Positions 16,029 to 39,980 are shown, counted from the first letter of the stretch. The stretch is 64,000 bases of DNA from Candidatus Poribacteria bacterium (GCA_965218095.1 OZ244587.1:2560001-2624000), one strand, 5' to 3'. Translations and numbers: made by a program. The notes: generated from the letters alone by a model not told the origin.

Positions 16029-16122
16029 GGGAGGGGATAGGGTCCGGTGGCTCTACTGGTCTTCAAAACCAGCTTGCCCATGCAAGTGGGTAGGTGGGTT
16101 CGACTCCCACCCTCTCCCGCCA
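16029..16122 (+). tRNA. selC: tRNA-Sec (anticodon UCA)
   Basis: 8-bp acceptor gggagggg/cctctccc; anticodon arm ctggt-cttcaaa-accag; long variable arm; T arm gtggg-ttcgact-cccac; encoded GCCA end. Confidence 0.95.
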
Positions 16123-37680: not shown

Positions 37681-37720
37681 TTTAGGGTACGGAAATATCT
37701 GATGCCTGATATAAAATCTA

Positions 37721-37879
37721 GGTTCTGTTGACATTTGACGGATTGAACCAATCTCCGTTCCGAGAGTCTTCGACCTGATGCACCTTGAGGCGATTTCGGA
37801 CAACTGTCTTGGTTTTTGGCGGGTTGCATGATGATTACAGCGTTTGCCGAATTCGCGACAGCGAAATGTCAACAGAACC
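37721..37879. mobile_element. 159-bp MITE sharing TIRs with the IS5 element at 51103-51917; TA target duplication
   Basis: ta|ggttctgttgacattt ... aaatgtcaacagaacc|ta. Confidence 0.85.
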
Positions 37880-37893
37880 TAATATCTAATTAT

Positions 37894-39621
37894 TAGGACT
37901 TACGCAAAATAAATAGACACAAGCGGTGAAAAGCAGTAGAATGAGCAGCATGGAGGTGAATATGGCCAAACCCACTCGACTCGACTACTGTCAGTATTTG
38001 CTCAGCAGCCCAATCAACTATACCTTAACCCATTTCGCTGACCATAGCAGAAGTTTCAGTCATGATATGATAAACCGTTATCTCGCCGGTGAGCGTATCC
38101 CGCCTCGCTTGGTATGGGAAAACGTCAAACCGCACATTGTGCAAACCCAACAGGGAAATGTCATCTTTGATGACACCATTTTGGACAAGCGCTACGCCCG
38201 GAACATCGCGTTGGTGCGTCGTCAGTATAGTGGAAACGCGAAAGCAACGGTATCGGTGTGGTGACTTGTGTCTATGTCAATCCCGCCTTAGACCGTTTCT
38301 GTACGACCCACAGGGGGATGGCAAGAGCAAATTAGATTACGTTAAGGAGATGTTAGTGCGCTTTTAAGTAACTAAATGCAATGGTGGTGCGATTCCATCT
38401 ATGATAGCTTACAATCATAAGCCTCACCTTAACTGCGTTGCCAGAAATGGCAGGGTGGGAAGCAAAGGGACATGGCGAATTCCTGAGAGGGAAAGTAGAC
38501 CCTTGAGACTGGAACGTCAGGCTGAGGATGATAAGGTTAAAATGAAAATTGAACTGATGTTTGAAGCCTCGTAACCTTAGAGCAGGTTAATCTACAAGCT
38601 AAAGCCTGTAACTAATAAAGTACAAGCATAGGGTTATGCGCTTAACATTCGCATAACCAAAGGTGATATGCTTGAAATTCATATCACTGGTAAGCCATTG
38701 CTTCGGGGCAAAGTCAGAACCTAAGTCATCTATAAATTACATTTAGTGAGATTAAAAGAGTCCCTAAGTCATCTTAAAGATGATATGGGAGAGGAAGGCA
38801 GAAAAAGCATTTTATGCAAAGCCTGCCTAGTGTCAACGTACTGAAATGTATCATAAACAGATTAAGGGAAAATGAGAGCAAATCAAGTCCCTGCTACATA
38901 CTTGGCAACTCGTCCCCATGTTCTGAACGATACAAAGTAAGTATGGCTGAGATTATCTTTTAAGTGATGCAGTAAGTTAGACAGCCTAAGACTTCAAAGC
39001 ATTATTAAGCATTACCAGTATAAGATAATCGGTAATTGGCAGGGCGAGCCGTGTGCGGTGAAAGTCGCACGCACGGTTTTGATGGGGGGAAAATTCCGTA
39101 AGGAATCTACCTATCCATACTCCCTACTAGTCTATCACAAGCAACTCTCCTTATGGATTGCTGGTATGCCACCAAAGATTTGATGATACACATTGAGCGG
39201 CTCCGAAAACATTACTATTGCCCGCTGAAATCCAATCGTCAGGTTGCTTCGAATCCCGATAAGATCGGGGGTGAAACTTTTCTGGGTCGCGTCTTCTAAC
39301 AGACGCACGGATTATGTTGTGACCAACGACTTGGCTCAAAACGACACTTCGGTTGCACAACAGGCGTGTAATTAGCGCTGGAAGATTGAGCAATTTCACC
39401 GGCAAGCCAAACAGTTGACAGGAGTTGAAGGTTGTCAATGCCGAGTGGCACGGCTTGTTCGCAACCATATTGGTTGTGCATTATTCGTTTGGATTCGGCT
39501 CGAGCACGTGGCGTATCAGACCCAGCAAACCATTTATCAGGTCAAACACGGAGTGTTGGAGGAGTATTTACGACAACAACTCAAATCTCCTGCGATTCGC
39601 ATGGAGCTTGCGTAAGTCCTA
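37894..39621 (+). mobile_element. IS701-family element; degraded transposase interrupted by a group II intron
   Basis: TIR taggacttacgca / tgcgtaagtccta; 5-bp TSD attat; MAKPTRLDYCQYLLSS, FDDTILDK, RWKIEQFHR, QLLKSP-like C-terminal end. Confidence 0.85.
38356..39120 (+). ncRNA. ORF-less group II intron (IIB-like), 765 nt
   Basis: 5' GTGCG; domain V gAGCcgtgtgcggtgaaagtcgcacgcacggttt (39046-39079); domain VI ending ctacctatccatAC; removal restores EML|SLLVYHKQL; EBS1 taacat pairs with IBS1 atgtta. Confidence 0.92.
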
Positions 39622-39980
39622 ATTATATCAGATTTAACCAATCTTGTCATCAGAAAGTCAGAAATTTGCAAATGAACAAATGGACTTTAGACACTTGACA
39701 GTGGATTTCAAACTTCTTTGAATCTCCTCAATGGATACAAATAAGGTATTCATCGTGGTGGCATCTGCTGCCGATTCTCTACCCTCATTGAAAATTTCTG
39801 TCAGAAAGTATTCTATTGACAAATGGACAAATTTCTGCGAAACTATAGAGTAGAAATTGGGATTGAAGCCTGCATACTCAGTAATTTTCAAAAAGAAAGT
39901 AATGGTTTGTAGTCAGGTGCGCTACTACGAACAGAATGTAACAAAGTCAAGTTACTTAGATACGGAAAAGGAGAATTTCT

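Follow-up and report, generated by a model that had tools for sequence, protein, structure and literature searches.

An IS701-family transposase gene of a sponge-symbiont bacterium (Candidatus Poribacteria) is interrupted by a block of 765 nt, and the question raised by this locus is whether the block is a complete group II intron without an open reading frame (ORF), how it came to lie there and whether it can still splice or move. The window that was analyzed is a stretch of 64,000 nt and corresponds to positions 2560001-2624000 of a 6.35-Mb single-contig genome (93.9% complete). The intron copy in the window is termed W, its host genome G000, and the related genomes carry codes from G014 to G023. 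The host element and the intron occupy the following positions:

37892-38355, plus strand: left arm of the IS701-family element (5' exon), recognized by NF049921 positions 2-93, homology to other copies and the inverted repeat
37892-37907: terminal inverted repeat ATTAGGACTTACGCAA, left end of the IS701-family element
38356-39120, plus strand: ORF-less group II intron W, 765 nt, recognized by RF00029 and RF02012, empty sites, covariation and an exon-exon contig
39121-39623, plus strand: right arm of the IS701-family element (3' exon), recognized by NF049921 positions 150-182 and 246-317
39608-39623: right inverted repeat of the IS701-family element

W is a genuine and complete 765-nt ORF-less group II intron of the IIB type, and its core looks intact. 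When the whole window was scanned with Rfam at the gathering threshold, three matches were obtained, two of which lie inside W. RF00029 (group II domains V-VI) matched 39044-39120 with 67 bits (gathering score 40), the match stopping exactly at the proposed 3' end, 39120, and RF02012 (group-II-D1D4-7) matched 38400-38490 in domain I with 35.6 bits (gathering score 34). Both ends conform to the group II consensus (5' GUGYG, 3' AY), as W begins with GTGCG at 38356, a start common to all 18 aligned copies, and its last bases are CCTATCCATAC (...CATAC at 39120). W is richer in AT than its surroundings, with a GC content of 0.413 where the IS arms have 0.471 and the genome as a whole 0.50. The longest ORFs inside it encode 57 and 49 aa; neither gave an NCBIfam match, and no similarity to the IEP of the family was found within W by tblastn. 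A preceding sequence-only reading had described a complete, AT-rich and ORF-free intron starting with GTGCG at precisely these coordinates, and all its essentials were borne out, the boundary of domain IV being the part that had to be corrected (see below). The window also harbors a tRNA-Sec gene at 16029-16118 (RF01852, 76.6 bits).

The interrupted gene belongs to an element that has the two features of the IS701 family, an IS701-type DDE transposase and terminal inverted repeats, here of 16 nt. The IS701 transposase model NF049921 matched it in three pieces (E 5e-33, 6e-10 and 3e-25), each of which stays below the whole-protein cut-off owing to the fragmentation of the gene. The host transposase is dead, as had been recognized from the sequence alone: frameshifts and a deletion of about 143 nt break the gene, and consequently there is no selection that would maintain splicing of W at this site. 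Four further copies or part-copies of the element are present in the genome. Of the five IS701 copies, two contain this intron, in the same position, and three are unoccupied, the target being intact in two of the latter. These two read ...GAGATGTTA/TCCCTACTAG... without interruption (the slash denotes the junction), carrying neither an insert nor a target duplication. Because the two empty sites are contiguous, the insert comprises exactly 38356-39120 and was not accompanied by a target-site duplication. Furthermore, an intact transposase homologue in G014 reads ...KSKLDHVKEVLSHSVYHK... across the site, in frame, demonstrating that the codon frame GAG ATG TTA / TCC CTA is real; the earlier proposal that excision rejoins the codons GAG ATG TTA / TCC CTA CTA GTC thus describes the true transposase frame. 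The IS arms of the two occupied copies are 97.3% identical over 488 nt (2.7% difference), but no difference separates the two introns over 515 nt (100% identity), indicating that the IS copies had already diverged when the intron homed into the second of them.

Other mobile elements were found close to these sites. The two IS701 copies with an unbroken junction hold an IS5-like element 10 nt further downstream, which encodes DUF4096 and DDE_Tnp_1. The inverted repeats at its ends (GGTTCTGTTGACATTT...) are shared by a 164-nt MITE-like repeat at window positions 37718-37881, which abuts the left end of the IS701 element and has about 20 copies in the genome, many of them 93-100% identical.

Secondary structure was derived from aligned copies of the family. 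A first fold, obtained from five short copies of G000, gave a six-domain consensus in which 89 of 206 pairs show compensatory changes. The main alignment consisted of 18 non-redundant ORF-less copies from seven genomes, for which RNAalifold returned a structure of 208 pairs. In W, the domains map as follows:

38361-38758, plus strand: domain I, from the consensus structure and the column map
38762-38789, plus strand: domain II, from the consensus structure
38796-38828, plus strand: domain III, from the consensus structure
38832-39040, plus strand: domain IV, 209 nt, structured, without ORF or IEP remnant, helices 25-36 co-varying
39046-39079, plus strand: domain V, RF00029 67 bits, helix 37 100% paired
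39047-39049 and 39060-39063, plus strand, within domain V: AGC triad and GAAA loop, respectively
39082-39118, plus strand: domain VI with a bulged A at 39113, from the consensus structure and RF00029

Standard pairs were found in 95.0% of the cells of the 18-copy alignment, compared with 34.7-42.3% when the partners were slid by one to three columns. Pairs that change on both sides numbered 115 of 208 (24-39 when slid), and none of 500 shuffles reached any of the five measures. W therefore adopts a six-domain fold that is backed by covariation. It deviates from canonical pairing at 11 of the 208 pairs (2-42 in the other copies), in line with the intact-looking core that had been noted before. 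A 34-nt domain V with AGC triad and GNRA loop is followed by domain VI, as previously read from the sequence, and the bulged A39113, the eighth base from the 3' end, is the predicted branch point.

Domain IV is where the sequence-only reading did not hold. It had been given as about 157 nt closed by ccctgcta/tggcaggg, the 5' strand of which is gapped in 11 of the 18 aligned copies; the closing helix backed by covariation lies at alignment columns 522-526/787-791 and delimits the 209 nt listed above. This domain has been kept, together with co-varying internal helices, in ORF-less copies whose overall identity is only 66-74%. Using blastn and tblastn, no similarity was detected between domain IV of W and the ORF-bearing domain IV of copy A (see below) or of G014, and likewise no ORF remnants flanking a deletion, as are characteristic of TeI3-type introns, were found in domain IVb of W. 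A simple deletion derivative of the ORF of copy A was considered as the origin of this domain and rejected, since the two show no similarity.

Recognition of the exons was analyzed in 13 full-length family copies of G000 for which both ends are available and which lie behind 13 different 5' exons. The elements in W are:

38342-38347, plus strand: IBS2, TTAAGG, pairing with EBS2 CCTTAG
38350-38355, plus strand: IBS1, ATGTTA, the last six exon bases, pairing with the EBS1 loop
38575-38580, plus strand: EBS2, CCTTAG, from own-exon specificity and covariation in relatives
38632-38658, plus strand: EBS1 hairpin, the loop of which holds EBS1 TAACAT(T) at 38643-38649
38711, plus strand: candidate EBS3 (A), pairing with IBS3 T39121
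Target site of W across the junction: TTAAGGAGATGTTA/T

W fits its own site at IBS2 (38342-38347), IBS1 (38350-38355) and IBS3 (T39121). Its EBS1 TAACAT(T) forms 7 bp with the exon sequence (G)ATGTTA, including one G-U. Over the 13 copies, contiguous EBS1 pairing anchored on the last exon base had a mean length of 4.15 bp when each copy was matched to its own exon and of 2.55 bp when it was matched to the exons of the others, and the own-exon mean was reached by none of 20,000 permutations. Pairing of at least 5 bp was obtained in 7 of the 13 copies, whereas six (B, C, D, E, J and K) pair poorly with their own exon. For EBS2, the corresponding means were 4.92 and 3.46, again reached by none of 20,000 permutations, with at least 5 bp in 10 of the 13; in relatives EBS2 covaries with its exon, UUGGG with CCCAA and UUAGG with CCUAA. 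The assignments made beforehand, EBS1 TAACAT in the loop of the 38632-38658 hairpin as complement of ATGTTA and a candidate EBS2 at 38575-38580 opposite ttaagg, are thereby supported. The column containing A38711 pairs best of all domain I columns with the first base of the 3' exon, with nine Watson-Crick and two G-U pairs in the 13 copies, one of the nine, J, being unreliably aligned. An EBS3 within domain I that is not adjacent to EBS1 is a hallmark of subgroup IIB, and all three exon pairings of that subgroup (EBS1-IBS1, EBS2-IBS2, EBS3-IBS3) were found, the third in 11 of the 13 copies. Judged by the IEP of its relatives, W would belong to the chloroplast-like (CL) class, the assignment to IIB/CL being based on IEP similarity and EBS3 placement rather than on a phylogeny.

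Two details of other copies in G000 were also recorded. Copies M (3601485-3602927) and N (4514987-4516393) share the EBS1 loop TATTCTGCTATTA, and their exons use different registers of it (AGAATA/TATTCT and TAGCAG/CTGCTA). The 5' exon of copy E (4703361-4704109, minus strand) ends in a 14-base sequence, CTATCCAAAACGTT, that recurs at the 3' end of the intron plus the first exon bases, which leaves the 3' boundary of that copy ambiguous by a few bases.

W belongs to a large family of ORF-less introns, a kind already known from cyanobacteria. The family far outnumbers its only maturase gene, as 23 RF00029 domain V matches were obtained in the genome and one match to GIIM (maturase). The latter lies in copy A (598220-600671), the IEP gene of which (genome positions 598748-600486; domains RVT_N, RVT_1, GIIM and HNH) is broken by an in-frame TGA and a frameshift. 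Searching with the IEP of the family by tblastn revealed IEP remnants only in copies A and C, and no intact related IEP that could act in trans was found elsewhere in this single-contig genome with its one GIIM match. The broken state of the only maturase gene had been missed by the sequence-only reading; it makes the present-day mobility of W doubtful, and W is probably no longer mobile in this genome. A second reverse transcriptase (RT), a 526-aa open frame at 1094679-1096256 with RVT_1 only, a YIDD motif and no maturase domain, is probably a defense-type or other non-intron enzyme.

The W lineage in G000 comprises one complete copy and two that separate IS elements have truncated, namely fragment P, which retains nt 1-515, and fragment R, which retains nt 389-765. 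Fragment R is a 99% identical 3' fragment and adjoins a different, non-IS701 3' exon, TCCTGAAATCC. The possibility that P and R are the halves of one split intron was rejected, since they overlap by 127 nt and were cut by different elements. Longer relatives carrying ORFs were likewise considered and rejected: the extra 1.3 kb of copy B is an IS with more than 10 copies in the genome, so that its large domain IV reflects an IS insertion. The best matches of W in domain I are B (87.9%) and copy A (86.8%), which bears the ORF, and in domain IV they are B (94.0%), D (85.6%) and E (84.1%); its closest relatives, B (88-96% by domain) and A, reside in unrelated sites. This mosaic, with a domain I like that of A and B and a domain IV unlike that of A, suggests that relatives with and without an ORF have recombined.

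Full-length ORF-less homologues of 711-753 nt were detected in six further genomes (G014, G017, G018, G021, G022 and G023), three of which (G014, G017 and G022) are Candidatus Poribacteria MAGs, and the ORF-less lineage spans at least two genera of this group. G014 encodes an intact 583-aa IEP inside a homologous intron, whose nearest solved relative is T.el4h (6ME0, E 1e-91, full-length alignment), and IEP matches were also obtained in G017 and G022. Identical or near-identical ORF-less copies at distinct loci are present in G017 and G023. The latter genome (a single contig, 97% complete) contains six such copies, 98.3-100% identical, at the distinct loci L060-L065, behind a common motif of about 16 nt, ...AACCYAAGTTGCTAG. 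No RVT_1 or GIIM match was obtained in G023, which holds only a 76-aa IEP remnant with a stop, and no RT, GIIM or IEP match in G021 (98% complete); ORF-less copies thus occur without a detected IEP or RT in G021, G018 and essentially G023. In four genomes belonging to two genera, one sub-lineage is found at a homologous site, ...ACAAnCTnAAGTGCG/TAAnTCCTAA...; its members are copy F (G000, 4426125-4426839), G022 L054, G014 L067 and G018 L033. Either the insertion is old and was inherited vertically, or the homing site has been conserved.

The copy of G021 (745 nt, L036:1501-2245, minus strand) directly follows the ATG of a gene for an M3 oligoendopeptidase (TIGR02290, E 3e-147) and directly precedes its codon 2; the gene is interrupted yet open over 606 aa. 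Of 29 family genomes, 28 gave a single match to this gene, and all eight orthologues examined are intron-free. An ORF-less copy in a conserved single-copy gene that stays open implies that the lineage can splice.

Transcripts were sought in four sponge metatranscriptome runs of one study, the contigs of which were aligned to 37900-39700. The RNA libraries contain the W sequence and one exact exon-exon junction. Run X1 yielded a contig of 161 nt (depth 2.73) that aligned without mismatch to 38272-38355 and 39121-39197 and thus joins 38355 to 39121, skipping exactly 765 nt (GT..AC); a contig of this kind was present in one of the four runs. Intron contigs of 659 nt (38417-39075), identical to W, were obtained in three of the four. 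Differences in depth between intron and exon contigs were not taken as evidence, since these are word depths summed over paralogues. The joined form is absent from the assembled DNA of this genome, and its 3' half corresponds perfectly to the W allele, from which the other three IS701 copies each differ at one of 71 bases. An origin from the IS701 element of another species was rejected for the 40 related genomes searched, in which no near-identical IS701 arm was found (best match 88%). The single contig of run X1 is direct, though slender, evidence that splicing occurs where predicted, as a conspecific intron-free allele or library DNA would give the same contig.

Taken together, we consider it highly probable that W is a retrohomed, structurally intact ORF-less IIB-type intron of an old lineage and a ribozyme of the splicing type. 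W would have entered the IS701-family transposase gene by RNA-guided retrohoming, in which the target bases TTAAGG, ATGTTA and T pair with EBS2, EBS1 and EBS3, respectively, and the RT/maturase of a related intron copies W into DNA without a target duplication; for this step W presumably depends on a protein supplied in trans. Transcribed within the transposase message, W would fold into the six-domain ribozyme, the bulged A39113 would attack the 5' splice site, and the exons would be ligated and the lariat released. In this manner, an old ORF-less lineage with a conserved structured domain IV would have come to occupy many sites, both here and in related genomes.

How splicing would proceed now is a separate matter. 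As a tentative idea, for which we would not claim a better than one-in-three prospect, the ORF-less introns splice in vivo alone or with a host factor and persist, or even multiply, in RT-free genomes. This reading is drawn from the G021 copy between the start codon and codon 2 of the oligoendopeptidase gene, from the six copies of G023, 98-100% identical at distinct loci, and from the exact W exon junction in RNA although the only IEP gene of the genome is broken. Equally tentative is its second part, that some of the lineage carries an EBS2 resembling an anti-Shine-Dalgarno sequence and lands at ribosome-binding-site or start-codon contexts. In 5 of 35 copies, a Shine-Dalgarno-like AAGGA/GAGGA and an ATG lie no more than a few bases from the junction, compared with 0.87% of random genome positions, and these make up 5 of the 15 copies outside the two conserved-motif lineages. 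The five are A, C, D and K of G000 and the G021 copy, and their EBS2 resembles an anti-Shine-Dalgarno sequence. Insertion at real gene starts in G000 was not supported, as virtual splicing gave only short ORFs at the junctions, of 25 (A), 17 (C), 44 (D) and 73 aa (K); the context is enriched nonetheless, and in G021 the gene start is a true one. A literature search for group II introns targeting ribosome-binding sites or start codons returned no description.

Could W instead be an inert fossil, a true group II intron that no longer splices or moves, with the exon-exon contig stemming from an intron-free IS701 allele in the population? The broken IEP gene, the dead host transposase, the IS insertions that destroyed the sister copies B, P and R, and the single junction contig of depth 2.73 in one of four runs would all fit this. 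We nevertheless regard it as unlikely: the fold of W is as intact as that of other copies, W-identical intron contigs occur in three of the four RNA libraries, the joined form bears the W-specific 3'-exon allele and is missing from the assembled genome, and the G021 homologue splits a conserved single-copy gene that is still open. Somewhat less probable still is that W remains an active non-autonomous retroelement, served by an intact IEP that is present in the natural population or encoded by a replicon missing from the assembly. Such activity would account for the identical intron in two diverged IS copies, and it accords with the intact 583-aa IEP of G014, the IEP matches in G017 and G022 and the identical or near-identical copies at distinct loci of G017 and G023; against it, the single-contig genome, 93.9% complete, has no intact IEP, and the W lineage is represented here by one complete copy and two truncated ones. 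The view taken from the sequence alone, that W is a non-autonomous retroelement specialized on the IS701 family, stands as to the missing ORF and the dependence on a protein in trans, but the specialization is very improbable, since two of five IS701 copies occupied at the same site and the fit of EBS1, EBS2 and EBS3 are outweighed by the 99% identical fragment beside TCCTGAAATCC, the unrelated sites of B and A, the three unoccupied IS701 copies (two with an intact target), the 13 different 5' exons of the 13 full-length copies and exon-binding sequences that diversify from copy to copy.

The preferred reading, a retrohomed ORF-less intron of an old lineage, can be set beside known systems. 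A literature search for group II introns in Poribacteria found no paper treating both in substance. ORF-less group II introns of the archaeon Methanosarcina reportedly home into other mobile introns. W resembles them in being nested in another mobile element, but it occurs in a bacterium, and the reading frame that it interrupts is that of an IS701 transposase, not of an intron.

Of the known systems, the TeI3 ORF-less introns of Thermosynechococcus elongatus come closest; according to Mohr, Ghanem & Lambowitz (2010; PMC2882425), this TeI3/TeI4 family has 17 ORF-less introns that arose from one deletion and are mobilized in trans by driver IEPs. Set against that account, the systems share many ORF-less copies of one IIB-type family with a single early loss of the ORF, copies located mostly outside functional genes or within other mobile elements, exon-binding sequences that have diverged yet fit their own flanks, and ORF-bearing relatives in the same genome (PMC2882425). 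In addition, the IEP of the Poribacteria family is, among solved structures, closest to T.el4h. The systems differ in that the TeI3 introns, as described there, keep N- and C-terminal ORF remnants around the common deletion whereas domain IV of W has no similarity to the ORF-bearing domain IV, and in that T. elongatus has six potentially active IEPs (PMC2882425) and the genome of W one, which is broken. Moreover, the W lineage is spread over at least two genera of Candidatus Poribacteria.

W itself is therefore ordinary, a TeI3-like, stripped-down intron in a mobile element. The noteworthy part is the context of its family, in which many ORF-less copies face a single broken IEP gene and further ORF-less copies occur in related sponge-symbiont genomes with no RT detected, one of them in a conserved gene. 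If true splicing takes place there, these genomes would offer a natural bacterial system for the loss of the intron's own protein, a long-discussed step of intron evolution, which leaves the ribozyme alone or with host factors. As summarized by Zimmerly & Semper (2015; PMC4424553), bacterial ORF-less introns are rare and nearly always found beside related IEPs, the exception being C.te.I1 of Clostridium tetani, cited there as the sole bacterial ORF-less intron in an IEP-free genome. The copies without a detected IEP or RT in G021, G018 and essentially G023, one of them in a protein-coding gene, resemble C.te.I1. The genome of W differs in that it does have an IEP gene, albeit a broken one, and the Poribacteria copies form a proliferated multi-copy family whereas C.te.I1, as presented there, is single and isolated.
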